A DNA stretch of 64,000 nt, from the sequence record OR567511.1. The stretch is one strand, 5' to 3'. This document shows, piece by piece, positions 4,511 to 44,578 of this stretch (its first letter is position 1; each line of letters begins with the position of its first letter). Source of the stretch: Enterobacter phage vB_Ent31. The notes below the pieces were generated by a model. The model saw only the letters and a program-made list of their open reading frames with translations, was not told where the DNA came from and searched no databases. The translations under genes and the position numbers were made by a program.

Positions 4511-4758
4511 AGGTCAAATATCCTAAAAGTATCTTCGACTAAAGTCTTGAACGTATTGTAGTGCATAGGTTCAAGGTCTTCACAAGTTTCTTCACAGAAT
4601 TCACGATAAAGAATATCTGAAGTGTAATCGCGGAAAATAGCAATATCAGATTCCCAGTAAGCACCAGTTTCTTCATCAGAGAAATAAACAGTACCATCAC
4701 GACGAATAACCCAGTCGCCGTAGTTCAATACTGTGATAGTGAATTGATTATATTTCAT
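4507..4758 (-). CDS. hypothetical protein (83 aa)
   Basis: ORF track. 4-nt overlaps with neighbouring ORFs. Confidence 0.5.
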   Translation of the reverse strand: MKYNQFTITVLNYGDWVIRRDGTVYFSDEETGAYWESDIAIFRDYTSDILYREFCEETCEDLEPMHYNTFKTLVEDTFRIFDL

Positions 4759-4982
4759 AAGACAAGCTCCTTAGCGCATTCAATAGCTTCATCCATACTT
4801 CCGAATGCATCTACTGAGTGATAATCTTTCCCAGTGTATTCATAAACCCACCAGGCGTCAAAATCTTCTTCAATAACGAAATCAACATCGTTCTTTGAAG
4901 TACCTTCAATCATTAGGCGGCCGTCTTCAGTACGCTTTGTTTGAAATCCGGCTAGCTGCAAGTCACTTTCAATTTTATTCAT
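4755..4982 (-). CDS. hypothetical protein (75 aa)
   Basis: ORF track. Coupled to neighbours. Confidence 0.5.
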   Translation of the reverse strand: MNKIESDLQLAGFQTKRTEDGRLMIEGTSKNDVDFVIEEDFDAWWVYEYTGKDYHSVDAFGSMDEAIECAKELVL

Positions 4983-5238
4983 CGAGGTACTCCTTCAGTT
5001 CTTCCTCTGTCATTCCTTCTTCCCACATATGATAAAAAGGACAATCCACACTTCTGTTTTGGACCGGGAAATATCTAACTTGGAAATTTTTGTTTATCAT
5101 TTCGCATGCTTTGAGATAATCAACAGCATTATTGATATCTTCCCAATTGGTTCCAAAGACGAATCGAGCATGCAGCTTAGAATGCCAAACGTCTATTTTA
5201 TGAGATATCAATATGATAACATTTATACCTTCATTCAT
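4975..5238 (-). CDS. hypothetical protein (87 aa)
   Basis: ORF track. Coupled to neighbours. Confidence 0.5.
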   Translation of the reverse strand: MNEGINVIILISHKIDVWHSKLHARFVFGTNWEDINNAVDYLKACEMINKNFQVRYFPVQNRSVDCPFYHMWEEGMTEEELKEYLDE

Positions 5239-5573
5239 TTGGCAGCCTTAACAATTTTGAGGTCGACGAAGCCTTTCTTGCGCTGGTTCTTCATCTTACG
5301 GATAGTGCTGTCAGAGATTTCTTTACGCTTTGTAGTTGGAATACCGAAAGCATCAAGATTAAATTCGGACAGAATGTAAGCAACAACCAGTTCACGGATA
5401 CGAGCTTTACCAATTTTCTGGTCATTTTCTTTCATCGTACCATGCAGTTCAACTTCCCACTTATCCAGCAACTTAGGAGTCACGATAACGTCTTTGAACT
5501 CACCATCAACTTTCATTGCTTCCACCTTCGGGAATACGAAAGCGTTCAGTACGTTTTTGATAGCCTGTGACAT
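5235..5573 (-). CDS. hypothetical basic protein (112 aa)
   Basis: ORF track. Lys/Arg-rich C-terminus. Confidence 0.5.
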   Translation of the reverse strand: MSQAIKNVLNAFVFPKVEAMKVDGEFKDVIVTPKLLDKWEVELHGTMKENDQKIGKARIRELVVAYILSEFNLDAFGIPTTKRKEISDSTIRKMKNQRKKGFVDLKIVKAAK

Positions 5574-9020: not shown

Positions 9021-9490
9021 TTTAAACTCTTACGAAGTTGCTTTTTGAATGAAGCAACAAGCTTTGGTTTGGAATCATCTTCAGAATAGGTAAACCCGTA
9101 AGCATTCATTTCAGCTATCATCTCGGGTTTACCAAGTCGACTGAATTCTTTTGACTTATCGCCAATGAAATTAGGATGAATGTTATTTTTAGTATAGTCA
9201 TTCTTCAGATAGGTCAGCAAACTCTCAAGCCACTCGAGGTAGTCGACTTCACGACCTTTTAAACCAGAGCGGTTGAACTTATGCTTCATTTGACCTTCTG
9301 CTGCGTTACACAGATTACATAGTAAACCACGAACTTTACCGGCTTTTGGTCCGTTCAATTCATGGTCGTGGTCAAGGTGGTTACTTTGAACATCGCTGTC
9401 TAATTCGCGTTTACAAATCGGACAGATACCATGCTGTGCATCAAATAGTCTTTGTTTTTCTTCTTTGTAGAGTTTGCTGGTCAATAACAT
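9017..9490 (-). CDS. 49: gp49 endonuclease VII (Holliday junction resolvase)
   Basis: 157 aa. NHLDHDHELNGPKAGKVRGLLCNLCNAAEGQMKHKFNRSGLKG...YLEWLE.LLTYLK.DYT.NNIHPNF.GDKSKEFSRLGK is near-identical to T4 gp49 and the same length. Confidence 0.93.
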   Translation of the reverse strand: MLLTSKLYKEEKQRLFDAQHGICPICKRELDSDVQSNHLDHDHELNGPKAGKVRGLLCNLCNAAEGQMKHKFNRSGLKGREVDYLEWLESLLTYLKNDYTKNNIHPNFIGDKSKEFSRLGKPEMIAEMNAYGFTYSEDDSKPKLVASFKKQLRKSLK

Positions 9491-13522: not shown

Positions 13523-13947
13523 AGTATTTCTCTCGCTTCAATGATACGAAGTTGTGCTTGCTTGTAAGTATACACTGCTTCTTTTAGTTGAGCATTTGAA
13601 ACTTGAAGATGGTCTTTATACCACTTGTTCAAGTCCTGATGCTTTTTAAAAGTTTCAACCAGTTTGTTATTTGATTCAATTAAAGCTTCTTGAAGTTTAT
13701 CAAAAGTCTTTTCAATAACTTCGCGCTTTACTGAACCGTCATAGTTCAATTTACAAAGAATGTTAGCATGACGCCAAATTTCTCTGAGTTCTCCAAGGAC
13801 GTTTTTCTTATCACCCCAAGTGAACTTATAAAGCTCTTCACAAATAGCTTCCGCCTGCTTTTCTGCTTTACTTTTAGCCATTCCAGCGTAGATATAAGCA
13901 GGAGGATAAAGGGCCGTGTTATCGACCCAGTTAGAAAGAATCAGCAT
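13510..13947 (-). CDS. hypothetical protein (145 aa)
   Basis: ORF track. Confidence 0.5.
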   Translation of the reverse strand: MLILSNWVDNTALYPPAYIYAGMAKSKAEKQAEAICEELYKFTWGDKKNVLGELREIWRHANILCKLNYDGSVKREVIEKTFDKLQEALIESNNKLVETFKKHQDLNKWYKDHLQVSNAQLKEAVYTYKQAQLRIIEAREILWKS

Positions 13948-14717
13948 ATAACCACCTTAGTTGGACGCTTAAAGAATGAATGAGTGCTATCGTCTTTAGC
14001 ATGTTCAAAAGTTGCAGAGAATTCAATGACTCCACGATAATCCATCGGAACTGCTTTTGGCAGAGAGCCGTAGACCGTTGCACCGTTTTCAAGACGGACA
14101 GTCATTTTGACTTGCATCCCGTAATAATCTTCCCAGCACTTAACTGAGACGACTTTACCTTTAACTACTTGCTTACCAGTAGGTGCTTCGCCTTTGTTCT
14201 TTTTGAACGATTCATACAGTTCATCAAAGAACTTCTTAGAAGCTTCTTGAATAGCTACAAGAATGTTCTTATGAGCTCTGACTTCAACCATCATAACGGT
14301 GGTGAAATCTTCAAGTTCCCAACGTTTGTAAGGTTCACGGACCTCGATAGGATGTCCGTAAAGTTTAAGTTCAACATACATTGCTGCAGTTAAACGAAGT
14401 TTCCACCATCCATGGTCTCTTGTGTACTCTGGTTTGTCAAAGTAATCAAGTTCCGTAACGTATGGAAGATAACTACCAGCGTGATATGCTTCCACTTCGC
14501 CTAAATCATTTTCCCAGAGATAACCATCGAACGGAGCATGTGGACGATCATCAATTCCCCAGGTTGGAGCAACCACCTTATCAAATCCTTCACGACCGTA
14601 GTGGGTCTTCGCCCATCCAGCATTCAATTCCAAAGCGCGTTCTTCAACTTTCGCTCGGCGTGCTGCATGTGCTTTACGATTTTCATCTAAGATTGAGTCG
14701 ATGATTTCAGTTAGCAT
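13941..14717 (-). CDS. hypothetical protein (~259 aa; start moved to MLTEIIDS)
   Basis: An early promoter (-35 at 14771-14777) and an RBS precede the ATG at 14717. The ORF-track start at 14795 lies upstream of that promoter. Confidence 0.55.
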   Translation of the reverse strand: MLTEIIDSILDENRKAHAARRAKVEERALELNAGWAKTHYGREGFDKVVAPTWGIDDRPHAPFDGYLWENDLGEVEAYHAGSYLPYVTELDYFDKPEYTRDHGWWKLRLTAAMYVELKLYGHPIEVREPYKRWELEDFTTVMMVEVRAHKNILVAIQEASKKFFDELYESFKKNKGEAPTGKQVVKGKVVSVKCWEDYYGMQVKMTVRLENGATVYGSLPKAVPMDYRGVIEFSATFEHAKDDSTHSFFKRPTKVVIC

Positions 14718-14741: not shown

Positions 14742-14778
14742 GAGACTATCATATACTAACTTTTTAGTGTTGTAAACG
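14742..14778 (-). promoter_or_regulatory. T4-type early promoter for gene 13941..14717
   Basis: Minus-strand CCGTTTACA (14779-14771) then TATATGATAG. Immediately downstream of the 32-bp repeat and terminator. Confidence 0.6.
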
Positions 14779-14787
14779 GTTGAATGC

Positions 14788-14819
14788 GGATTCACCAGAA
14801 CGGTTGAGAGGAACTTTCT
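14788..14819 (-). repeat. 32-bp exact repeat GGATTCACCAGAACGGTTGAGAGGAACTTTCT, copy 1 (between terminator and early promoter)
   Basis: Identical 32-mer at 37608..37639. Flanking sequence is also similar over ~100 bp. Confidence 0.8.
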
Positions 14820-14849
14820 TGGGAGGGATGATAAATCATATTACGAGGA

Positions 14850-14878
14850 TACAAAAATGCCCCAGCGAAGCCGGGGCG
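14850..14878 (-). terminator. intrinsic terminator after gene 14883..15311
   Basis: Minus strand GCCCCGGC-ttc-GCTGGGGC followed by ATTTTTGTAT. Confidence 0.7.
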
Positions 14879-14882
14879 AACT

Positions 14883-15311
14883 TTAGTGATAAGCTGGAGC
14901 ATTAGGGTCGCCAGAAAACCACACAGACTTTTCTATAACAGCTGTTTGCAATTGATTGTTATAAAGAGTCTCATTAATAATTTTTTCCATCTCAAACAAA
15001 TGCGCAGCTTGCAACTGCTCGCGGTCCATTGCGATTAGAGCTTTACATTTTTCTTTCATATAAGTTCGTTTGCCAATCTGTCTTCCTACCAATGGCACTT
15101 CACTTCCCAATTTAAGCCAGTTATTAAAAGCAGCATCCGTAGAGTTTTTATATTCTACTATAGAATCAGTCATACGATTATAAAAGTCTAATTTTGCTTC
15201 TCTATTGTTCTTTCGAAGCATTTCCAAAGCTGTAGATTTCAAACTCATCGCTTCCACTCCTCTGTTCGACCTATTCGGTCGGGGTGACAATTCCAGAAAT
15301 AGTCCTTGCAC
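14883..15311 (-). CDS. hypothetical protein (142 aa or shorter from MSLKS)
   Basis: ORF track. Followed by a strong intrinsic terminator. Confidence 0.5.
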   Translation of the reverse strand: MQGLFLELSPRPNRSNRGVEAMSLKSTALEMLRKNNREAKLDFYNRMTDSIVEYKNSTDAAFNNWLKLGSEVPLVGRQIGKRTYMKEKCKALIAMDREQLQAAHLFEMEKIINETLYNNQLQTAVIEKSVWFSGDPNAPAYH

Positions 15312-37183: not shown

Positions 37184-37213
37184 GATTTATTCTCCGATTC
37201 AATTTTGTTTTGA

Positions 37214-37251
37214 TGAGGTAATAATATCATACTACCCCATCATTGTAAACA
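37214..37251 (-). promoter_or_regulatory. T4-type early promoter for gene 36983..37183
   Basis: Minus-strand TGTTTACA ... GTATGATATTATTACC. Confidence 0.55.
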
Positions 37252-37254
37252 ATT

Positions 37255-37515
37255 TTATTTCATTCTGTTGAAATATTTTTCAGCTGCTTCGTCGTCTTTA
37301 TGGTAGGTCTTAGTCAAAGCTACCGGGCGAACGTTGAAAGTGTTAAGAGAATCGCGAGCAATCACGATAGTAAACCAACGGCCGTCATCATTACCTAAAG
37401 CAGCATAACGATAAGTGTCCCACACAAATTGCTTAATGCTTTTGATATCATTCAATGAATTAGCTAAATCTGAATGACCGTTCTTAGCAAGTTTTTCTAT
37501 GATGTTGTTGAACAT
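37255..37515 (-). CDS. hypothetical protein (86 aa)
   Basis: ORF track, with promoter at 37532-37576. Confidence 0.5.
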   Translation of the reverse strand: MFNNIIEKLAKNGHSDLANSLNDIKSIKQFVWDTYRYAALGNDDGRWFTIVIARDSLNTFNVRPVALTKTYHKDDEAAEKYFNRMK

Positions 37516-37531
37516 TTTCTTTACTCCATTT

Positions 37532-37576
37532 GTTTTTGATAGAGCTATAATAACACATCTAGAACCAATGTAAACG
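37532..37576 (-). promoter_or_regulatory. T4-type early promoter for gene 37255..37515
   Basis: Minus-strand CCGTTTACA ... GTGTTATTATAGC, preceded by the 32-bp repeat. Confidence 0.55.
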
Positions 37577-37607
37577 GCTGAGGCGAAAGATTTTAAAGAA
37601 GATATTT

Positions 37608-37639
37608 GGATTCACCAGAACGGTTGAGAGGAACTTTCT
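37608..37639 (-). repeat. 32-bp exact repeat, copy 2
   Basis: Identical to 14788..14819 and in the same terminator-repeat-promoter arrangement. Confidence 0.8.
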
Positions 37640-37669
37640 AGAAGAGAATGATTAAACCATTGACTATGC

Positions 37670-37712
37670 ATACAAAAATGCCCTGAGTGTCATAGAGATA
37701 CCCAGGGCATTA
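37670..37712 (-). terminator. intrinsic terminator closing tRNA block 1
   Basis: Minus strand ATGCCCTG-(17-nt loop)-CAGGGCAT followed by TTTTTGTAT. It is the first strong terminator downstream of tRNA-Thr. Confidence 0.65.
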
Positions 37713-37961
37713 AAATTGTTGTATTTATATGCAACAACGCCCCGTCCGAAGACAGGGCGTAAGAATCGACAGCACCACCCACTGGCAGATGGTCTGCAGA
37801 TGTTCATTCCCAGCGACTCGGAGGCATCAGTCTCGCCACTGGAAATATAGCGCCGTGGAGGTTATGCTTGCGACAGGGAACAACCGACTAGCGGCAATGG
37901 AAAACCATTCTCTTCTAACACGACGTCTCAACGAGGGCATACGCAAGTTTCCCTTCGAATT

Positions 37962-38037
37962 TGGTGCCGATTGCAGGAGTCGAACCCGCGGCATCTTCAT
38001 TACAAGTGAAGCGCTCTACCAGCTGAGCTAAATCGGC
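37962..38037 (-). tRNA. tRNA-Thr (anticodon TGT)
   Basis: Reverse complement GCCGATTTAGCTCAGCTGGTAGAGCGCTTCACTTGTAATGAAGATGCCGCGGGTTCGACTCCTGCAATCGGCACCA has canonical arms and encoded CCA. Confidence 0.9.
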
Positions 38038-38039
38038 TT

Positions 38040-38137
38040 AAGACGGAAATAAGGATTCGAACCTTATGTAGTTGCACAGACGTATCTGCCGTTGAATTCC
38101 TCACTAAGTTTAAGCAACTATTCCCGGGGTCTTAATT
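38040..38137 (-). ncRNA. tRNA-like element / small stable RNA candidate (T arm present, cloverleaf not resolved)
   Basis: Contains TAAGGTTCGAATCCTTA (T arm) and a possible acceptor CGGGAAT/ATTTCCG, but no canonical D or anticodon arm. ~98 nt. Wedged between tRNA-Thr and tRNA-Leu. Confidence 0.35.
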
Positions 38138-38222
38138 TGGTGCATCAAGAGGGATTCGAACCCTCAATCCTTTCGGCGGAAGATTTTAAGTCTTCTGTGT
38201 ATACCAGTTCCACCATTGATGC
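38138..38222 (-). tRNA. tRNA-Leu (anticodon TAA), class II
   Basis: Reverse complement GCATCAATGGTGGAACTGGTATACACAGAAGACTTAAAATCTTCCGCCGAAAGGATTGAGGGTTCGAATCCCTCTTGATGCACCA with long variable arm. Confidence 0.9.
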
Positions 38223-38228
38223 GAAATT

Positions 38229-38313
38229 TGGAGCTAGGAGTGAGATTCGAACTCACGAAGGGATACCCGGCGGATTTGCAATCCGCTGCCTTTGGCCACT
38301 CAGCAACCCTAGC
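38229..38313 (-). tRNA. tRNA with Cys-type anticodon arm (GCA) and discriminator U, but an 85-nt class-II-like architecture (13-nt variable arm)
   Basis: Reverse complement GCTAGGGTTGCTGAGTGGCCAAAGGCAGCGGATTGCAAATCCGCCGGGTATCCCTTCGTGAGTTCGAATCTCACTCCTAGCTCCA. The anticodon arm GCGGATTGCAAATCCG is as recalled for E. coli tRNA-Cys. Confidence 0.7.
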
Positions 38314-38317
38314 AAAT

Positions 38318-38396
38318 TGGTCGAGGTAGAGGGATTCGAACCCGTCGACCTGTGGATTAGAAGTCCACTGCTCTATCCAGCTGAGCTATACCCCGA
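38318..38396 (-). tRNA. tRNA-Arg (anticodon TCT)
   Basis: Reverse complement ...CGGGGTATAGCTCAGCTGGATAGAGCAGTGGACTTCTAATCCACAGGTCGACGGGTTCGAATCCCTCTACCTCGACCA. Confidence 0.85.
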
Positions 38397-38500
38397 GTGT
38401 GTTCAGACAGGACTCGAACCTGTAAGCATGTTCTTGCGGCGTTTTACCACCATCGTCAGCGTATGATTCAATACGCGAACTCAAAAGGTGTTGGACCCCT
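38397..38500 (-). ncRNA. tRNA-like remnant / small RNA candidate (T arm ACAGG-TTCGAGT-CCTGT, no matching acceptor)
   Basis: The T-arm motif sits immediately 5' of tRNA-Arg but a cloverleaf could not be completed. Could be a T4 rnaC/rnaD-type stable RNA or a pseudo-tRNA. Confidence 0.25.
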
Positions 38501-38535
38501 TGTCTACCAATTTCAGCACTGAACAACTTTATTTA

Positions 38536-38763
38536 TTACATATCAACTTGTGTAAACCAGTTGATTTTGAAATACTCATCAAAATGAAGAGCAGGCTCAA
38601 CTTGAGTATCCTCCTCAAGAAGAATTAAATTCTTTCTTACAAGAGGGTCAAGATGAGTTGTGTTTAAGCAACTATCATGCCAATATGTAAGTACTCTATT
38701 AGATTCGGCGGTATCAACAAGATAACGAACATTCATATCAGGATGTCGGTACAGATTAATCAT
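38536..38763 (-). CDS. hypothetical protein (75 aa)
   Basis: ORF track. Confidence 0.45.
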   Translation of the reverse strand: MINLYRHPDMNVRYLVDTAESNRVLTYWHDSCLNTTHLDPLVRKNLILLEEDTQVEPALHFDEYFKINWFTQVDM

Positions 38764-38766
38764 AAT

Positions 38767-39216
38767 CTATTTCTCTTGAAGCATTTTGCGTAAACGATAG
38801 AGCTGATTACAAAATTCTTTTTCAGTCAAAACTGTTTCGGAGATTTTGTTCTTGCCCATACTGTGAGTTAATGTTGCGTTACGAGTGGCAATTAATGCTT
38901 TTTGGAATCCAGTGTTTTGAGAAAGTGCATCATATGCTCCAGTTAAAAGATTCTGGTATGCTTCAGATGCTCGATGAATAGGAACACCCTTCCAATAAAG
39001 GGTTTGAGTAGGCCACCAACGTTTCTTCTTGCCTTTGAACTTTGCTGCCTTTCCAACTAAAGTGCAAACATGAGCTTGCATTTCAGGGTTAGAAAATTTG
39101 AGGGATTGTAAGAATCCCTCCATTGATGCACATTCTACATCATCGTAAACGAAAGCATGTGGTGCAAAGTTACTTAAAGCACAAGAAGGATATGAACTTC
39201 CAGAGCCAATGTCCAT
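38767..39216 (-). CDS. hypothetical protein (149 aa)
   Basis: ORF track. Confidence 0.5.
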   Translation of the reverse strand: MDIGSGSSYPSCALSNFAPHAFVYDDVECASMEGFLQSLKFSNPEMQAHVCTLVGKAAKFKGKKKRWWPTQTLYWKGVPIHRASEAYQNLLTGAYDALSQNTGFQKALIATRNATLTHSMGKNKISETVLTEKEFCNQLYRLRKMLQEK

Positions 39217-39447
39217 TTAATTACCGTGAGATATTCTAGAAGGTTTCTTACCAAAATAATATTCATATGAGCCATCTAAACGACCTGCTTTAGTGCGGCA
39301 ATATGAATCCCGTTTCTTATAATGCCGCCATTCATCATTGTATCTTGGACGACGGTCAGCGATTAAAATCTCTAATGGCCAACCAGGCGCAAAGGAACGG
39401 AGCCGTTCGACTTTTCTAATGTATCTTTTCTTTAAGATTTTCTTCAT
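39217..39447 (-). CDS. hypothetical basic protein (76 aa)
   Basis: ORF track. Arg/Lys-rich. Confidence 0.45.
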   Translation of the reverse strand: MKKILKKRYIRKVERLRSFAPGWPLEILIADRRPRYNDEWRHYKKRDSYCRTKAGRLDGSYEYYFGKKPSRISHGN

Positions 39448-39665
39448 ATAGATTCCGACATTACGTGAGTAGTTCTCTTTCTGATTGTAAATTGAGTTAA
39501 TTCATCAACTTCACCACAACGCCAAGCGTCATCTTCAGTTTCAAAACCAAGAGCCTCAAATAGGTTACCTAAACGCCAACCTTCGTCAAACTCGGGGTCT
39601 CCTGAAAAATAGTAATAGTAATCGGCAGTTACTAAATCTTGAATTACAAAATCAAACTTTTCCAT
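39444..39665 (-). CDS. hypothetical acidic protein (73 aa)
   Basis: ORF track. Confidence 0.45.
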   Translation of the reverse strand: MEKFDFVIQDLVTADYYYYFSGDPEFDEGWRLGNLFEALGFETEDDAWRCGEVDELTQFTIRKRTTHVMSESI

Positions 39666-40162
39666 CAGATACTTACCACAGTAATAGCTTCAGGAGCTTT
39701 AGGAATAACGATATCTTCTTCGATGTAGAAGAGCTTAAATTTTTCAGCTACACGCATGAAGTCAGTATCATAACCAACTGGAGTTCCAATCAATTCTTGG
39801 ATTTTATCCATCACTTTATACTGAACTTGATAGAAATCTTCAAGACGAGCATCGAATTCATCTTCAGTATAATTGCCTTCTGGGATTACAAAGCCAAGCA
39901 CTTCTGAACAGAACTCTGGAGTGATTTCTTCATTTTCAACACAATATTCAAAGAAAGCATCACCGGAATAATCTTCGTTACCCATTCCATTAGGGTCTGA
40001 ATTATCAGACGCGAAACATTTCGCAACGGCACACCAACCTGAAATGTGTCTAGCATTTACATTATAAATCACATTCTCTTGATAATCATCGCCGTCGTTT
40101 TCCCATGATACACATGATACTGCATAGCCTTTAGGGATAGTTTGACCAAAGCGGAGTTCCAT
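39665..40162 (-). CDS. hypothetical acidic protein (165 aa)
   Basis: ORF track. Confidence 0.5.
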   Translation of the reverse strand: MELRFGQTIPKGYAVSCVSWENDGDDYQENVIYNVNARHISGWCAVAKCFASDNSDPNGMGNEDYSGDAFFEYCVENEEITPEFCSEVLGFVIPEGNYTEDEFDARLEDFYQVQYKVMDKIQELIGTPVGYDTDFMRVAEKFKLFYIEEDIVIPKAPEAITVVSI

Positions 40163-40172
40163 AATATTTCCT

Positions 40173-40577
40173 TCAATTAAATGGTGGAAGTGGTTTCATG
40201 TACAAATCTATCAACATACGCCATTTAGCAATTACTTCAGCATACGTATCATTGCATAAAAATCGTGTGATGTCAGAATAATCAATTGCTGGTAGCGGAG
40301 TTAAATGATTCATCAATTCGCGAGGAAATTGATTAAAGCATTTCATCATATCTTTGTAAACATAATCAAGTAAGTCTTGAACAGAGAAGAACTCAGTGTT
40401 TCGTCCTTCTTTGGAATACCGATATTTCAGAAATTTCCAATGGCCGGAGTCTCTGTCTTGAGTGAATGCGTAGTCACTATGTAACATGACATTACGAACT
40501 AAATCTTCAGAGAAGAAGATGGAGTGAGTGCAACCATAATAAATCATAATATTTTCCTCAGAATTTGGTGGCCCCAT
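40173..40577 (-). CDS. hypothetical protein (134 aa); 5' end abuts/overlaps the 3' end of tRNA-Met
   Basis: ORF track. Confidence 0.45.
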   Translation of the reverse strand: MGPPNSEENIMIYYGCTHSIFFSEDLVRNVMLHSDYAFTQDRDSGHWKFLKYRYSKEGRNTEFFSVQDLLDYVYKDMMKCFNQFPRELMNHLTPLPAIDYSDITRFLCNDTYAEVIAKWRMLIDLYMKPLPPFN

Positions 40578-40641
40578 CCGGATTCGAACCGAAAACCTAC
40601 CAGTTATGAGCCGGGTGCTCTACCAATTGAGCTATAGGGCC
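40566..40641 (-). tRNA. tRNA-Met or Ile2-type (anticodon CAT)
   Basis: Reverse complement GGCCCTATAGCTCAATTGGTAGAGCACCCGGCTCATAACTGGTAGGTTTTCGGTTCGAATCCGGATGGGGCCACCA. The GGCCC acceptor resembles lysidine-type Ile2. Confidence 0.8.
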
Positions 40642-40665
40642 AAAGTCCTCCGAAGAGGACGAATG

Positions 40666-40890
40666 TTATTCAACCATGAAATCTGCTACTTCATCAAAGT
40701 CGTTATCAATAACAACAGTAAATGGCAGAGCTTCATCGCTTGTTTTGATAGTCAGCTTAACGAAGCCATCGACAGTTTCAACCAAACCTACAATTTTATC
40801 AGAACGTACTACAGCACGAGCTACGTCAACAATTTTACCAGTCAGTGCAAATGTAGCGATTTGGTTAACTTCAACAACGATACGTTTCAT
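40666..40890 (-). CDS. hypothetical protein (74 aa)
   Basis: ORF track, with promoter at 40902-40935. Confidence 0.5.
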   Translation of the reverse strand: MKRIVVEVNQIATFALTGKIVDVARAVVRSDKIVGLVETVDGFVKLTIKTSDEALPFTVVIDNDFDEVADFMVE

Positions 40891-40931
40891 TCTTTTTCCT
40901 TAGTGGTTTTGATGTAGTAATAATAACATCA

Positions 40932-41489
40932 TTATTTTAAAGCGTAATATCTGAACGGATTGATATGAAATGATAACATTGCTCTGTCATTCTTTTCAGG
41001 CTTATCAACTTCAGATTTCAGTTTCCACCCACAGTAAACTCGTAAGCAGAATTGAATTTTTCCAATTTTAAGCCAAGGCTGATATCCAAATACACCCCAA
41101 GCTGATTCATTCCACATAAGCAACCAACCGTTAGATTTACCGTTAGATTCTACAGTCGGATTGCCCTTCCATTTAAACTCTGAAGTAGCTTCTCGTCCAA
41201 GAACATAATAAGCAAAGTTATATGCTTTATTTCGCCATAGCCATGCTACGCGTTGCATATATTTTCCAACGATCGGAATTTTACGAATCTTTTCCCAGCG
41301 CTTAACATGACCGCCATCTCCGTCAATTGGATTATCAAATGTCATCATCCAATTGAATCCATATGGAAGTTTTCCGCTAACTTCATTATAGAATGGAACT
41401 ACAAATGGAGCAAGCAAAATAGCTAGCACGCCAGTAATCCAATCAAGTGGTACAAGAACAATATAACTTAAGTATTTTAGCAGTTTCAT
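40932..41489 (-). CDS. membrane-anchored hypothetical protein (~185 aa; start moved to MKLLKYL)
   Basis: The ORF-track start at 41591 overlaps tRNA-Phe, so the internal Met at ~41489 was used. One N-terminal TM helix. Trp/Tyr-rich. Confidence 0.5.
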   Translation of the reverse strand: MKLLKYLSYIVLVPLDWITGVLAILLAPFVVPFYNEVSGKLPYGFNWMMTFDNPIDGDGGHVKRWEKIRKIPIVGKYMQRVAWLWRNKAYNFAYYVLGREATSEFKWKGNPTVESNGKSNGWLLMWNESAWGVFGYQPWLKIGKIQFCLRVYCGWKLKSEVDKPEKNDRAMLSFHINPFRYYALK

Positions 41490-41556
41490 AGTAGTCTCCT
41501 TTGACACTCTATTTATGCTAAAAAGCCCGAACAGATTTCTCTGCTCGGGCGTTGTT

Positions 41557-41631
41557 TGGTGGGAAGTGTTGGAATCGAACCAACCTCTCATGCTCTTCAG
41601 GCACGCGCTAATCCATCTCAGCTAACTTCCC
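41557..41631 (-). tRNA. tRNA-Phe (GAA)
   Basis: Reverse complement GGGAAGTTAGCTGAGATGGATTAGCGCGTGCCTGAAGAGCATGAGAGGTTGGTTCGATTCCAACACTTCCCACCA. Confidence 0.85.
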
Positions 41632-41632
41632 T

Positions 41633-41709
41633 TGGTCTCCATACGAGGATTTGAACCTCGGACCCTCTGGTCCCAAACCAGATGCTCTACCAGACTGAGC
41701 TACACGGAG
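41633..41709 (-). tRNA. tRNA-Pro (TGG)
   Basis: Reverse complement CTCCGTGTAGCTCAGTCTGGTAGAGCATCTGGTTTGGGACCAGAGGGTCCGAGGTTCAAATCCTCGTATGGAGACCA. 1-nt spacer to tRNA-Phe, so a dimeric precursor is likely. Confidence 0.85.
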
Positions 41710-41803
41710 ATATTTTTCAGGATGGACGCCACTCTACATTTATGGGTCGAGTCTCCATCATAAAACGTCACGGTCCTCGGCGATTTTCCGTGGTCTGAAA
41801 ATT

Positions 41804-41878
41804 TGGAGCATCCAGAGAGAATCGAACTCTCATCTACTGGGTGGAAGCCAGTCATAATAGCCGCTATACGATGGATGC
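41804..41878 (-). tRNA. tRNA-Gly (TCC)
   Basis: Reverse complement GCATCCATCGTATAGCGGCTATTATGACTGGCTTCCACCCAGTAGATGAGAGTTCGATTCTCTCTGGATGCTCCA. Confidence 0.85.
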
Positions 41879-41883
41879 AAATT

Positions 41884-41958
41884 TGGCAGGCCCTGAAGGA
41901 ATCGAACCCTCATCACTGGGTTTGGAGCCCAGCATAATAGCCGTTATACTAAGAACCT
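41884..41958 (-). tRNA. tRNA-Trp (CCA)
   Basis: Reverse complement AGGTTCTTAGTATAACGGCTATTATGCTGGGCTCCAAACCCAGTGATGAGGGTTCGATTCCTTCAGGGCCTGCCA. Discriminator G. Confidence 0.85.
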
Positions 41959-41964
41959 GTTATT

Positions 41965-42040
41965 TGGTGGGAGTAACTGGACTCGAACCAGTCACCGCTC
42001 GATTATCGGTCGAGAGCTCTACCAAATGAGATATACTCCC
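41965..42040 (-). tRNA. tRNA-Ile (GAT), copy 1
   Basis: Reverse complement GGGAGTATATCTCATTTGGTAGAGAGCTCTCGACCGATAATCGAGCGGTGACTGGTTCGAGTCCAGTTACTCCCACCA. Confidence 0.8.
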
Positions 42041-42106
42041 ATGGAAAGCTAATCATCTAATTGTTGATGTACCACTGCTATGGACAGTGTTTAACTTTCA
42101 TAAATT

Positions 42107-42191
42107 TGGCGGAGAGTAAAGGAGTTGAACCCTCACCGTTTCCGATGGCCCGGATTTCAAGTCCGGTTTGCTACCACTAGCGCTACTCTCC
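42107..42191 (-). tRNA. tRNA-Ser (TGA), class II
   Basis: Reverse complement GGAGAGTAGCGCTAGTGGTAGCAAACCGGACTTGAAATCCGGGCCATCGGAAACGGTGAGGGTTCAACTCCTTTACTCTCCGCCA. Confidence 0.85.
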
Positions 42192-42197
42192 AGTATT

Positions 42198-42283
42198 TGG
42201 TGAAGGAAGTGTCATATAGACACAATTCGCTTAGCGACAGCCACAGCGTTTTGCGGGCCGTGTATTTTTCCACCATTCCTTCA
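42198..42283 (-). ncRNA. tRNA-like small stable RNA candidate (86 nt, acceptor GAAGGAA/TTCCTTC + ACCA, non-canonical T loop)
   Basis: Reverse complement TGAAGGAATGGTGGAAAAATACACGGCCCGCAAAACGCTGTGGCTGTCGCTAAGCGAATTGTGTCTATATGACACTTCCTTCACCA. Paired termini and an internal GTGTC/GACAC hairpin, but no TTCRA T loop. Same strand and spacing as the flanking tRNAs. Confidence 0.4.
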
Positions 42284-42287
42284 TTGT

Positions 42288-42363
42288 TGGGGTGACCGGA
42301 CGGATTTGAACCGTCGACGGCAGCAATCACAATGCTGAGTTCTACCAACTGAACTACGGCCAC
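42288..42363 (-). tRNA. tRNA-His (GTG)
   Basis: Reverse complement GTGGCCGTAGTTCAGTTGGTAGAACTCAGCATTGTGATTGCTGCCGTCGACGGTTCAAATCCGTCCGGTCACCCCA. Discriminator C. Confidence 0.85.
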
Positions 42364-42455
42364 ATCAATATTCACTCCATCATGAGGACTTCATACGAAA
42401 TTAAGAGAAGAATGATTAGTTCAACCCCTGTAGACGCGTTGAATGAATATTAATT

Positions 42456-42530
42456 TGGCTGGACTATCTGGATTCGAACCAGAGATACCGGAGTCAAAGG
42501 CCGGTGACTTAACCGCTTGTCTATAGTCCA
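42456..42530 (-). tRNA. tRNA-Gln (TTG)
   Basis: Reverse complement TGGACTATAGACAAGCGGTTAAGTCACCGGCCTTTGACTCCGGTATCTCTGGTTCGAATCCAGATAGTCCAGCCA. Similar to E. coli tRNA-Gln. Confidence 0.85.
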
Positions 42531-42536
42531 ATTGTT

Positions 42537-42612
42537 TGGAGGCGGGTGATGGACTCGAACCATCGCGTAACGGGATATGAACCCGTCATTCTACCAACTG
42601 AAGTTAACCCGC
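42537..42612 (-). tRNA. tRNA-Met-type (CAT), second CAT tRNA (GGG/CCC anticodon stem)
   Basis: Reverse complement GCGGGTTAACTTCAGTTGGTAGAATGACGGGTTCATATCCCGTTACGCGATGGTTCGAGTCCATCACCCGCCTCCA. Confidence 0.75.
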
Positions 42613-42770
42613 ATTTATCCGGGTTCTTGAAGTACTAACAAGTAGCTTGATGTAGAACACGCTAAAGATATAATCTTCCGAATATAGAGCTTATCCCGTG
42701 GGAACAAACAGCTTCGTCCTCGGCATTATCTTATAGGACTCAAACTCATCTTCAAGAACTGCCTCATATT

Positions 42771-42847
42771 TGGCAGTGCTGACGGGTTTCGAACCCGCGA
42801 TCTCTCCCGTGACAGGGGAGTGTCTTGACCATCTCGACTACAGCACT
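42771..42847 (-). tRNA. tRNA-Asp (GTC)
   Basis: Reverse complement AGTGCTGTAGTCGAGATGGTCAAGACACTCCCCTGTCACGGGAGAGATCGCGGGTTCGAAACCCGTCAGCACTGCCA. Confidence 0.85.
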
Positions 42848-43093
42848 ATAAATTTACTTTCGTGAGTATGGGATTACCCTCAAGCCTTCCGGAAAGCTGA
42901 ATAGGCGTTATTGGCTCTCATATACCCGTGCACAGATATAATCTTCATTAACACAATAACTTCATCAATATACTCCGAAAGTAAACTTTCGGCGCCGTAT
43001 TTAATTTGAGCTATGTGGTTATCGTTGAGGGAACTCATAGTCAGGGATTAAAGTGCCGACGACTTTGTCAGAACGTCTTCCAACTTCTATATT

Positions 43094-43178
43094 TGGCGGG
43101 TCGTGCAGGTATCGAACCTGCCTAGTCATTTCTGACACGGATTAACAGTCCGCCGCTTACCCTCTCAGCCAACGACCC
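43094..43178 (-). tRNA. tRNA with Asn-type anticodon arm (GTT) and discriminator G, but 85 nt with an extra 15-nt variable stem-loop
   Basis: Reverse complement GGGTCGTTGGCTGAGAGGGTAAGCGGCGGACTGTTAATCCGTGTCAGAAATGACTAGGCAGGTTCGATACCTGCACGACCCGCCA. The anticodon arm GCGGACTGTTAATCCGT is as recalled for E. coli tRNA-Asn. Confidence 0.7.
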
Positions 43179-43184
43179 TAAATT

Positions 43185-43259
43185 TGGTTCTCCGTAAGAG
43201 AATTGAACTCTTCTTTCCGACGTGAAAGGTCGGCGTCCTAACCGATAGACGAACGGAGA
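43185..43259 (-). tRNA. tRNA-Glu (TTC)
   Basis: Reverse complement TCTCCGTTCGTCTATCGGTTAGGACGCCGACCTTTCACGTCGGAAAGAAGAGTTCAATTCTCTTACGGAGAACCA. Confidence 0.85.
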
Positions 43260-43260
43260 T

Positions 43261-43337
43261 TGGTAGGACACGAAAGATTCGAACTTTCGACACCCGGATT
43301 AAAAGTCCGGTGCTCTAACCAGCTGAGCTAGTGTCCT
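43261..43337 (-). tRNA. tRNA-Lys (TTT)
   Basis: Reverse complement AGGACACTAGCTCAGCTGGTTAGAGCACCGGACTTTTAATCCGGGTGTCGAAAGTTCGAATCTTTCGTGTCCTACCA. 1-nt spacer to tRNA-Glu. Confidence 0.85.
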
Positions 43338-43375
43338 GTAGATATTTATAATATCAAAAATATCTTTAAGCAAAT

Positions 43376-43451
43376 TGGTGGGAATAACTGGACTCGAACC
43401 AGTGACCTAACGATTATCGGTCGTTTGCTCTACCAACTGAGCTATATTCCC
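43376..43451 (-). tRNA. tRNA-Ile (GAT), copy 2 (diverged duplicate of 41965..42040)
   Basis: Reverse complement GGGAATATAGCTCAGTTGGTAGAGCAAACGACCGATAATCGTTAGGTCACTGGTTCGAGTCCAGTTATTCCCACCA. Confidence 0.8.
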
Positions 43452-43910: not shown

Positions 43911-44136
43911 AATGTTCTCTCGCAGTATTTTGGTGAATCAACGATAATTCATCGAAGATTGACTTCATTGCATTTTTCACAAAAACTTTTTCAGATGGCT
44001 CCATCGACGTATTGTTGATGATTCTTGCCATTCGTTCTTTTAGCTTCTTTTTCCGATTCCGGACCGTCTCCTTAGAAGCGGTCCTCATGTGAGCAAGATT
44101 AGTCATCATGTTCCGTCGATAGATTAATAATATCAA
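43876..44136 (-). CDS. hypothetical basic/helical protein (86 aa)
   Basis: ORF track. Confidence 0.45.
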   Translation of the reverse strand: MILLIYRRNMMTNLAHMRTASKETVRNRKKKLKERMARIINNTSMEPSEKVFVKNAMKSIFDELSLIHQNTAREHYEHQQHLEQTV

Positions 44137-44517: not shown

Positions 44518-44534
44518 TTTAATCTCCTTGTGTT

Positions 44535-44578
44535 GATAGGGCTATAGTATCATAGCCCTCAAGGAAAGTAAACGGCTA
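44535..44578 (-). promoter_or_regulatory. early promoter with the GGGCTATAGTATCATAGCCC palindrome; copy 2 of the duplicated cassette
   Basis: Minus-strand CCGTTTACT ... TATGATACTAT in the palindrome, then AAGGAGATTAAAAATG. Confidence 0.55.

Follow-up and report, generated by a model that had tools for sequence, protein, structure and literature searches.

A previously undescribed intergenic module between stem-loop and promoter in Karamvirus and related T4-type phages: a possible transcription-unit boundary signal

The analyzed stretch of Enterobacter phage vB_Ent31 (sequence record OR567511.1; 64,000 nucleotides, referred to below as the window) contains a 32-mer, GGATTCACCAGAACGGTTGAGAGGAACTTTCT on the + strand, which occurs perfectly at 14788-14819 (site A) and at 37608-37639 (site B), so that an exact search of the window agrees with the first-pass annotation, in which the repeat had been noticed. 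The two 32-mers are well supported as the conserved core of two paralogous cassettes of the promoter-early stem-loop (PeSL) type, and the module that contains this core represents a previously undescribed, PeSL-related family. Every copy of the module is oriented with the local transcription and lies between a 3' stem-loop and the next promoter. The common order is the stem-loop, a P box (a TATAAT-like motif and then ATCAT), a variable stretch that is pyrimidine-rich in all versions and is held at a length of 23-24 nt, box II (CTCRRCCGTTCTGGYKAAY) and the next promoter; ATCAT and C..CCG.TCTGG..AA are unchanged across 32 distinct members. The reading that we favour, with a probability of about 0.4, is that the core is a transcription-unit boundary signal which would be read mainly on read-through RNA and would serve as a preferred crossover point too.

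The repeated core and its conservation

The window belongs to a CC31-like T4-type Enterobacter phage of the genus Karamvirus, and its closest matches are the Enterobacter phages vB_EclM-UFV01 and EnC07 (96-98% identity). The genes flanking sites A and B are all on the minus strand, and the two sites are direct repeats, 22.8 kb apart. The minus-strand order described earlier, in which a terminator is followed by the element and then by a GTTTACA-type early promoter, holds at both sites. The chance expectation for the 32-mer is 0 (100 dinucleotide-preserving shuffles). No third copy with up to 3 mismatches was found on either strand of the window, and a profile hidden Markov model built from 22 related cassettes yielded only sites A and B in the 64 kb, without diverged extras. 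An apparent match at 9264 was rejected as a further copy since it lies inside a gene, and matches at 43929 and 51628 were rejected since their surroundings read like ordinary coding sequence, without a call of an open reading frame (ORF).

In the pairwise alignment of the two sites, the likeness outside the 32-mer is limited to GGGCATTTTTGTAT, to ATCAT with the pyrimidine run, and to TCA(A/G)CCGTTTACA. The similarity of the surrounding ~40 nt that had been noted earlier is therefore confined to one side: it is present on the terminator side and absent on the promoter side, where a 22-nt indel is found. Stems, linkers, -10 regions, genes and the left part of the spacer show no relationship between A and B. 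The repeat, which holds no coding sequence, is therefore no fragment of a longer duplicated segment; the refuting condition set in the first-pass annotation, a duplication that extends into coding sequence, is ruled out by this alignment of the flanks, in which the hairpins also differ. A match at 32 of 32 positions beside a spacer of ~60% identity would be very unlikely without constraint or gene conversion.

The PeSLs described in T4-type phages are stem-loop/early-promoter cassettes of the plastic early regions (Arbiol et al. 2010, PMC2839356; Comeau et al. 2014, PMC4122927). They begin with a stable intergenic stem-loop, able to terminate or attenuate transcription from upstream, which is followed by an often A/T-rich stretch and by a sigma-70-like promoter of the TTTACW-N17-TAYWAT type (spacing 16-18 nt), and they end with a Shine-Dalgarno sequence and the start codon; they are located at insertions, deletions and replacements between related phages, and exchange between copies gives rise to chimeric cassettes (PMC2839356, PMC4122927). 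Mini-circles detected by inverse PCR mark recombination between PeSL copies in the course of infection. Sites A and B resemble them in having a stable stem-loop upstream of the promoter, each with ATTTTTGTAT, in the promoters themselves (TTTACA-17-TATGAT at A and TTTACA-16-TATTAT at B, both followed by GGAG and ATG), in their position at gene replacements, and in the occurrence of chimeras (site A of CGG4-1, S16 and myPSH1140, and site C of Moon). However, in the described PeSLs the stem-loop stands directly before the promoter, ~15-35 nt before the -35 element and with an A/T-rich gap only, and the homology consists of the promoter and the stem-loop themselves. The three other early promoters of the window that have a stem-loop also show this spacing of ~15-35 nt, with no core in between. 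In contrast, the distance from the T-tract to the -35 element is 71 nt at site A and 94 nt at site B, and most of this gap is conserved spacer and core, which are not A/T-rich. The extra module of ~60 nt (P box, pyrimidine run and a core of 30-32 nt) is far better conserved than the stem-loop, and it is found also before a late promoter.

A BLAST search with either cassette gave 59 phage records with ~100 places. Site A occurs in nearly all (59) of some 60 related phage records, and CC31 lacks site B. The number of close copies is mostly two in Karamvirus (one in CC31), two or three in Moonvirus and one in Gelderlandvirus. Conservation was evaluated for both sites from representative genomes, with 22-28 unique cassettes from these three genera. 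The 30-nt core, AGAAAGTTCCTCTCAACCGTTCTGGTGAAT, is almost invariant, with 17 of its 30 columns unchanged in 28 unique cassettes at the two sites; the changes recur at positions 14-16 and 26, and in the Moonvirus copy at site B, AACT replaces GTTC. The invariant positions of the module include CCGTTCTGG and ATCAT. The core of Karamvirus shares 90-100% identity with the cores of the other two genera, and the conservation of the element in related phages, proposed as a check in the first-pass annotation, is confirmed. The spacer has a constant length (33-34 nt from GCATTTTT) and exists in three sequence types that are ~55% identical to each other, and the linker varies freely in both sequence and length. 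At site B of Karamvirus, the linker and the left part of the spacer drift, but the core does not. For comparison, the protein encoded by the adjacent 258-aa gene is 71-80% identical between genera, and its four-fold synonymous sites are 38-56% identical.

A sliding comparison between genera reveals a block of high identity that begins at the hairpin, covers the promoter and reaches ~300 nt into the gene, and part of the similarity between genera is probably due to imported blocks of this kind. However, the import of blocks does not explain an unchanged core beside a diverged spacer and linker. Purifying selection on the core, together with occasional gene conversion between A and B, is a well-supported explanation of the identity of the two cores.

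Scans of metagenomes and of the IMG/VR database returned the same clade only, plus chance matches in coding sequence, and no match to the core was found in 185,579 bacterial and archaeal genomes, by which a host origin of the core was rejected. The orthologues of the 258-aa gene in Winkler-, Kanagawa-, Jiaoda-, Marfa- and Tegunavirus (from ~50% identity in Tegunavirus to ~70%) have an early promoter (TAGTTTACA...) that begins at the preceding stop codon, with no hairpin, spacer or core. As judged from this comparison, the module is an insertion, and the promoter would not need it. In EcS1, a plain stem-loop and promoter stand ahead of an e.8-like gene.

Diverged family members and exchange between cassettes

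Upstream of e.8 in the Gelderlandvirus CGG4-1, a diverged copy is present, in which a hairpin with a T-tract is followed by TTTATAATCTATCATCCTTTCT, ATACCCATTCTCT and CGACCGTTCTGGTTAAC. BLAST with this copy and a scan of IMG/VR with the pattern ATCATY-N22-23-CCGTTCTGGYKAA revealed two further sites, C and D, both outside the window, which gives about four copies of the family per genome. The search for further copies suggested earlier thus has a double outcome, with none in the window and related ones elsewhere. Block I of the core (AGAAAGTTCCTCT) is found at sites A and B only, and these two are the closest relatives in the family.

Site C follows gene 52 and lies ahead of two small ORFs and motA, according to the annotation of PG7 (~168.6 kb); it is carried by PG7, CC31, Pet-CM3-4, Merlin, CF1 and CGG4-1. 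Its order is a hairpin, GGCTCTAGTGAATTCTAGAGCC, without a T-tract, then CCATATAATTAATCATCCTTTCT, a variable stretch of 13 pyrimidine-rich nt, CAACCGTTCTGGTTAAC, a linker rich in A/T and, last, an early promoter. In its loop (TGAATT or TTAATT), the site C hairpin is similar to the GGTGAAT / GGTTAAC segment of box II.

Site D is located on the opposite genomic strand, at the junction of gene 18 (tail sheath) and gene 19 (tail tube), and was seen in Pet-CM3-4, S16, Merlin, PG7 and CC31. Here, the order is a hairpin, ATAAATACAATCAT, ~21 nt, CGGCCGTTCTGGTGAAT, CAGAACGG and the late promoter TATAAATA. Two stem-loops are present at this site; a late-promoter-like CATAAATA comes right after the first, and TATAAATA right after the second. 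Box II supplies the 5' arm of a hairpin with the conserved loop GGTGAAT. The stem arms are CCGTTCTG / CAGAACGG in Pet-CM3-4, CCGCTCTG / CAGAGCGG in PG7 and CC31, TGGCTC / GAGCCA in Merlin and TGGTTC / GAGCTA in S16; all cells are paired (35/35), as compared with 22-49% in slid controls, and three of the seven pairs are changed on both sides. This covariation points to a hairpin of nucleic acid, which may form in RNA or in single-stranded DNA.

In a metagenomic Karamvirus contig, a 230-aa ORF (4615-5307; phrog_5104) lies between the late promoter of site D and gene 19, and similar extra ORFs are annotated in CW742, AS6, RZH, COW86c, KMB17, EnC07 and EnA02. The 230-aa ORF has no match in Pfam. 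By eye, its C-terminal part (..QIDHIVSK..NLQIIPWKKNLEKS..) appears HNH-like, and the product may be a free-standing homing endonuclease.

The cassettes are mosaic, and hairpin and spacer types occur in differing combinations across sites and genera. Site A of myPSH1140 and mg118042 has a type-1 left half with a B-like pyrimidine run, sites A and B of CkP1 have the same pyrimidine run and the rare G15 variant, and site A of S16 has GGTTAAC and a linker of the B/C type. The copies of S16, myPSH1140 and CkP1 show gene conversion between A and B. At site A of CGG4-1, the linker and promoter of its own site B are found, followed by a different gene, and the third copy of Moonvirus (site C) has a site-C hairpin joined to a spacer and core of the A type. 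The gene content changes at the same places: site B is followed by the 86-aa gene, an e.8-like gene or a DUF1190 lipoprotein gene, and site A by the 258-aa gene or by small ORFs. It is well supported that no block of homology in the cassettes is longer than the core and that the cassettes have acted as junctions for the exchange of genes and of their own parts. The suggestion of a recombination hotspot in the first-pass annotation agrees with these comparative data, namely the shuffling of parts between sites and genera, the conversion between A and B, and the shifts of gene content at the cassettes. By homology with PG7, the genes e, regB, tk, denV and rI lie between sites A and B, and a simple deletion between the two sites therefore seems unlikely to be viable.

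A proposed boundary signal on read-through RNA and rival explanations

In the mechanism that we propose, the module would mark the border between transcription units and would act in cis, chiefly on RNA that reads through the upstream stem-loop. The unstructured stretch, in which C exceeds G and which carries the invariant ATCAT and UCUGGUGAAU, would be bound by a trans-acting factor, for which Rho, an endoribonuclease and a phage RNA-binding protein are candidates. The read-through RNA would then be ended or cut, and the downstream gene would be expressed from its own promoter. Our confidence is low for three parts of this mechanism, namely that selection at sites A and B acts on RNA, which factor is involved, and what the outcome is. 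Indirect support for a role at the RNA level comes from the covarying hairpin of site D.

On the transcribed strand, spacer and core together contain 30% C and 12% G at site A, and 23% C and 15% G at site B, which places them at the 99th and 88th percentiles, respectively, of C minus G among segments of the window. The same region is predicted to be unstructured (z = -0.45 and +0.63 relative to shuffles), folding no better than shuffled sequence on either strand, and the terminator dominates the folds of the whole intergenic regions. An untranslated and unstructured stretch with more C than G right after a 3' stem-loop, accompanied by an A/U-rich P box, resembles a Rho utilization (rut) site or an RNase E site, and the stretch of site D is flanked by two stem-loops. 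Intercistronic processing by RNase E occurs in the mRNA of T4 gene 32.

Several points weigh against such a signal on RNA. Neither RNA structure nor covariation was found at A, B or C; long-range pairing of the P box with box II was tried and rejected, as 79.5% of cells were paired, equal to shuffles, and the central pair was unpaired in 19 of 32 members. The covariation of the site D hairpin derives from five distinct sequences only, and three genera were sampled. Because strong intrinsic terminators precede the module at A and B, there may be little read-through RNA. In addition, rut and RNase E sites normally need no nucleotide-perfect conservation over 30 nt, and the near-perfect core, with its invariant ATCAT and UCUGGUGAAU, is unlike such degenerate sites. 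The distance classes between the core and the -35 element, ~11 bp apart, would fit a factor bound to one face of the DNA helix, and the small palindrome ATGAT-N2-ATCAT, which is unable to form an RNA hairpin, looks more like a DNA site. The trans-acting factor is a hypothetical candidate, and complementary partners of UCUGGUGAAU in the window were not above chance.

A related proposal, which we regard as doubtful, is that of a sequence-specific and orientation-dependent boundary element of one T4-like clade, working in early as well as late regions and serving as a preferred crossover point, where a dedicated factor would read ATCAT and UCUGGUGAAU and would determine the points between units at which transcripts are ended or cut. 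This factor could be an RNA- or DNA-binding protein of the phage, or a host nuclease or termination factor that is used sequence-specifically.

It is rather unlikely, in our estimate, that the core acts as a DNA operator, in which case the core, perhaps with ATGAT-N2-ATCAT, would be a duplex site for a host or phage protein that activates, represses or insulates the adjacent promoter, as an upstream site of the class I type or as a stoperator-like roadblock. Several of the features described above suit this explanation: the strongly constrained core is asymmetric and falls into two parts around an unconstrained centre, RNA folding predicts no structure, the palindromic P box is retained through three diverged spacer types, and the module always has the same orientation with respect to transcription. 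Core and TTTACA are separated by 11-13, 22-23 or 34-35 nt, classes that are roughly in helical register and come from few independent events, so that the centre of the core is at ~-62/-64, -73 or -85 and stays roughly on one helical face upstream of the -35 element. Class I activator sites, such as those of CRP, are centred at -61.5, -72.5 or -82.5 upstream of sigma-70 promoters. However, the distance classes may merely reflect inserted A/T-rich UP-like tracts, other candidate early promoters on the early strand of the window lack the element, and a duplex site leaves the covarying box II hairpin of site D unexplained. The absence of the core from the 185,579 bacterial genomes indicates that it is not a copy of a host operator, and no match of the core to the consensus of a known factor was established.

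The UP-like or activator-binding site that the first-pass annotation had considered does not hold up well for similar reasons. An UP element is A/T-rich, lies at ~-40 to -60 and contacts the alpha C-terminal domain of RNA polymerase, whereas spacer and core have 38-42% G+C against 39% in the window, and the 3' end of the module is at ~-49 (A) or -71 (B). The distance to the -35 element varies, and in the longer versions A/T-rich UP-like DNA sits in the linker, between the core and the -35 element, not in the core. Unlike an activator site, the module is dispensable for the orthologous promoter in the five other genera, and one member of the family precedes a late promoter, a type that needs no upstream elements; these two points count against any DNA operator as well. 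The stoperators of cluster A mycobacteriophages are asymmetric intergenic repressor sites that are oriented with transcription, and the module is similar to them as a short asymmetric motif in several intergenic copies whose orientation follows transcription on either strand. It differs from stoperators in its small copy number and in having one copy inside a covarying hairpin. T4-like phages are virulent, and we know of no repressor in them.

That the core is a relic kept by exchange also seems improbable to a similar degree. According to this explanation, it would be half of a PeSL in degraded form, or what a lost insert has left behind, functionless except as portable homology for recombination, and its uniformity would stem from recent horizontal exchange and gene conversion between copies. 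The mosaic structure with its clear conversion and crossover events is in keeping with such a history, as is the inter-genus block of high identity, which runs from the hairpin to the first ~300 nt of the gene as after recombinational import. Box II (CAACCGTTCTGG) resembles the CAACCGTTTACA of the promoter and the P box resembles a -10 element, as in a degenerate tandem promoter, and degraded PeSLs have been described near indels (Comeau 2014, PMC4122927). However, the changes in the core are uneven, falling on positions 14-16 and 26 with 17 columns fixed, the core is unchanged beside spacer types of ~55% identity, ATCAT and box II are retained at sites C and D, which have diverged much further, and the variable stretch holds its length. 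These uneven changes, the boxes that are invariant in diverged copies and the conserved length are difficult to reconcile with a pure relic.

The remaining explanations are much less probable. A site of replication or recombination in single-stranded or duplex DNA, such as part of an origin, a loading site for a primosome or helicase, or an endonuclease target, is very improbable, even if about four strongly conserved copies per genome next to promoters might be expected of it and the hairpin of site D could form in single-stranded DNA. The module is unlike the described T4 origins, and sites A and B are outside the regions named there (PMC3016281); there are no iterons, an A/T-rich unwinding element is not constant, and an endonuclease target would not stay intact in all genomes. 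An even smaller chance is given to an antisense promoter on the + strand, TTGAGA-17-(G/A)ATGAT, whose transcript would lie antisense to the terminator and the 3' end of the gene before it. It matches the consensus at 9 of 12 positions at both copies and would account for the fixed distance between core and ATCAT. It was rejected because the most variable positions of the core are both T's of the putative -35 element (CTGAGA, TCGAGA, CCGAGA and TTAAGA); in addition, block I is conserved although it would be promoter spacer, about one such match per 600 nt is expected by chance, and no + strand terminator lies downstream.

In T4, the ribosome-binding sites of genes e, soc and 49 are masked in read-through transcripts. 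An analogous masking, in which the CU-rich core would pair with the downstream Shine-Dalgarno sequence in read-through RNA so that only promoter-proximal transcripts are translated, has the lowest probability of the explanations weighed here. The CUC..CCGUU of the core is complementary to the frequent ribosome-binding site AACGGAG, but RNAduplex pairing of the core with its cognate ribosome-binding site was no better than that of shuffled cores (mean z = 0.08 in 26 cassettes), by which masking by the core was rejected. The ribosome-binding sites of several cassettes lack the complementarity, and the pairing is not present in minimum-free-energy folds.

Known RNA families and coding micro-ORFs were rejected as well. 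Rfam at a permissive threshold gave only sub-threshold chance matches, and none of note at site A or site B. On the minus strand, a 15-codon ORF at site A corresponds to ATG-GTT-TAA at site B, and on the + strand, the ORF that starts from the ATGAT motif shifts its frame between spacer types and has 8 codons in S16. The core sequence was not found in a phage context in the literature search. By eye, no convincing or conserved match was seen between the core and the consensus sites of CRP, Fis, IHF, Fur, RcsAB, sigma-E, sigma-28 and sigma-54, or of the MotA box, late promoter, boxA, Chi and the tRNA T-arm.

Cassette coordinates, neighbouring genes and significance

The features of the two cassettes are listed in Table 1. 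The stem-loop of site A is the terminator of the upstream DUF7203 gene (stop at 14883), and that of site B was missed by a simple terminator scan because of its long loop. An A/T-rich UP-like tract is not present in the linker of site A. The flanking proteins (DUF7203, phrog_4750, phrog_2678 and phrog_3720) all lack a known function and give no hint of a role.

Table 1. Features of the cassettes at sites A and B and of the genes they precede, in window coordinates.
Feature	Position	Strand	Remarks
Site A stem-loop, GCCCCGGC-TTC-GCTGGGGC (hairpin GCCCCGGCTTCGCTGGGGC)	14859..14877	-	8 pairs, 7 of them GC
Site A T-tract, ATTTTTGTAT	14849..14858	-	identical at site B
Site A spacer	14820..14848	-	29 nt
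Site A P box, ATGATTTATCAT	14828-14839	-	in spacer
Site A pyrimidine run, CCCTCCCA	14820-14827	-	in spacer
Site A core, 32-mer, AGAAAGTTCCTCTCAACCGTTCTGGTGAATCC on the minus strand	14788..14819	-	block I AGAAAGTTCCTCT, box II CTCAACCGTTCTGGTGAAT
Site A linker, GCATTCAACC	14778..14787	-	10 nt, core to GTTTACA
Site A early promoter, GTTTACA-17-TATGAT	14748..14777	-	
258-aa gene, phrog_4750	13941-14717	-	function unknown; driven by site A promoter; GGAG, ATG at 14717
Site B stem-loop, GCCCTGGGTATCTCTATGACACTCAGGGC	37680..37708	-	folded: stem of 12 bp or more; end of the tRNA-cluster transcription unit
Site B T-tract, ATTTTTGTAT	37670..37679	-	
Site B spacer	37640..37669	-	30 nt
Site B P box variant, ATGGTTTAATCAT	37648-37660	-	in spacer
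Site B pyrimidine run, TCTCTTCT	37640-37647	-	in spacer
Site B core	37608..37639	-	same as site A core
Site B linker	37576..37607	-	32 nt; A/T-rich UP-like tract TTTAAAATCTTT
Site B early promoter, GTTTACA-16-(TG)TATTAT	37547..37575	-	TG extension
86-aa gene, phrog_2678	37255-37515	-	function unknown; driven by site B promoter; GGAG, ATG at 37515

Site B lies at the end of a tRNA cluster (37962-43451, minus strand) with 19 tRNA genes identified by ARAGORN and several ORF-bearing gaps between sub-clusters. The last of these genes, tRNA-Thr (37962-38037), is followed by ~245 nt free of ORFs. This stretch (37716-37961, minus strand) contains a GC-rich hairpin, GCCCTGTCTTCGGACGGGGC, at ~37740-37760 and has a weak Rfam match (Ysr49, E = 0.043); its counterpart in PG7 has two ORFs instead. 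It could encode a small stable RNA closing the cluster. The tRNA cluster of T4 has a small stable RNA at its end.

After the 86-aa gene, a second early promoter, GTTTACA-N17-TATTAT, is found at 37221-37250, and the gene with this promoter (37184-37515) looks like an inserted unit. In mg118042, CkP1 and KM16, the cassette of site B directly adjoins an e.8-like gene, and in PG7, the 86-aa reading frame is apparently disrupted. Elsewhere in the window, a 42-nt repeat with 90% identity (28211-28252 and 44531-44572) represents, in reverse complement, a further pair of early-promoter cassettes and contains the near-palindrome GGGCTATAGTATCATAGCCC; it is a second case of paired regulatory cassettes in the window.

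PeSLs have been proposed as vehicles of modular gene shuffling, with the homology placed so far in the promoter and the stem-loop. Here, conservation within the cassette is highest in a separate core of ~30 nt, which surpasses nearby synonymous sites and protein sequence in this respect and is present at four conserved junctions, one of which belongs to the late region. Should the core be just a relic, it would still illustrate cleanly how non-coding DNA undergoes concerted evolution in virulent phages. If it is a boundary signal, it would be a new cis element in the regulation of T4-type phages, would explain the clustering of exchange points at the cassettes, and would offer a handle for engineering insertions in therapeutic phages of Enterobacter, Citrobacter and Salmonella.

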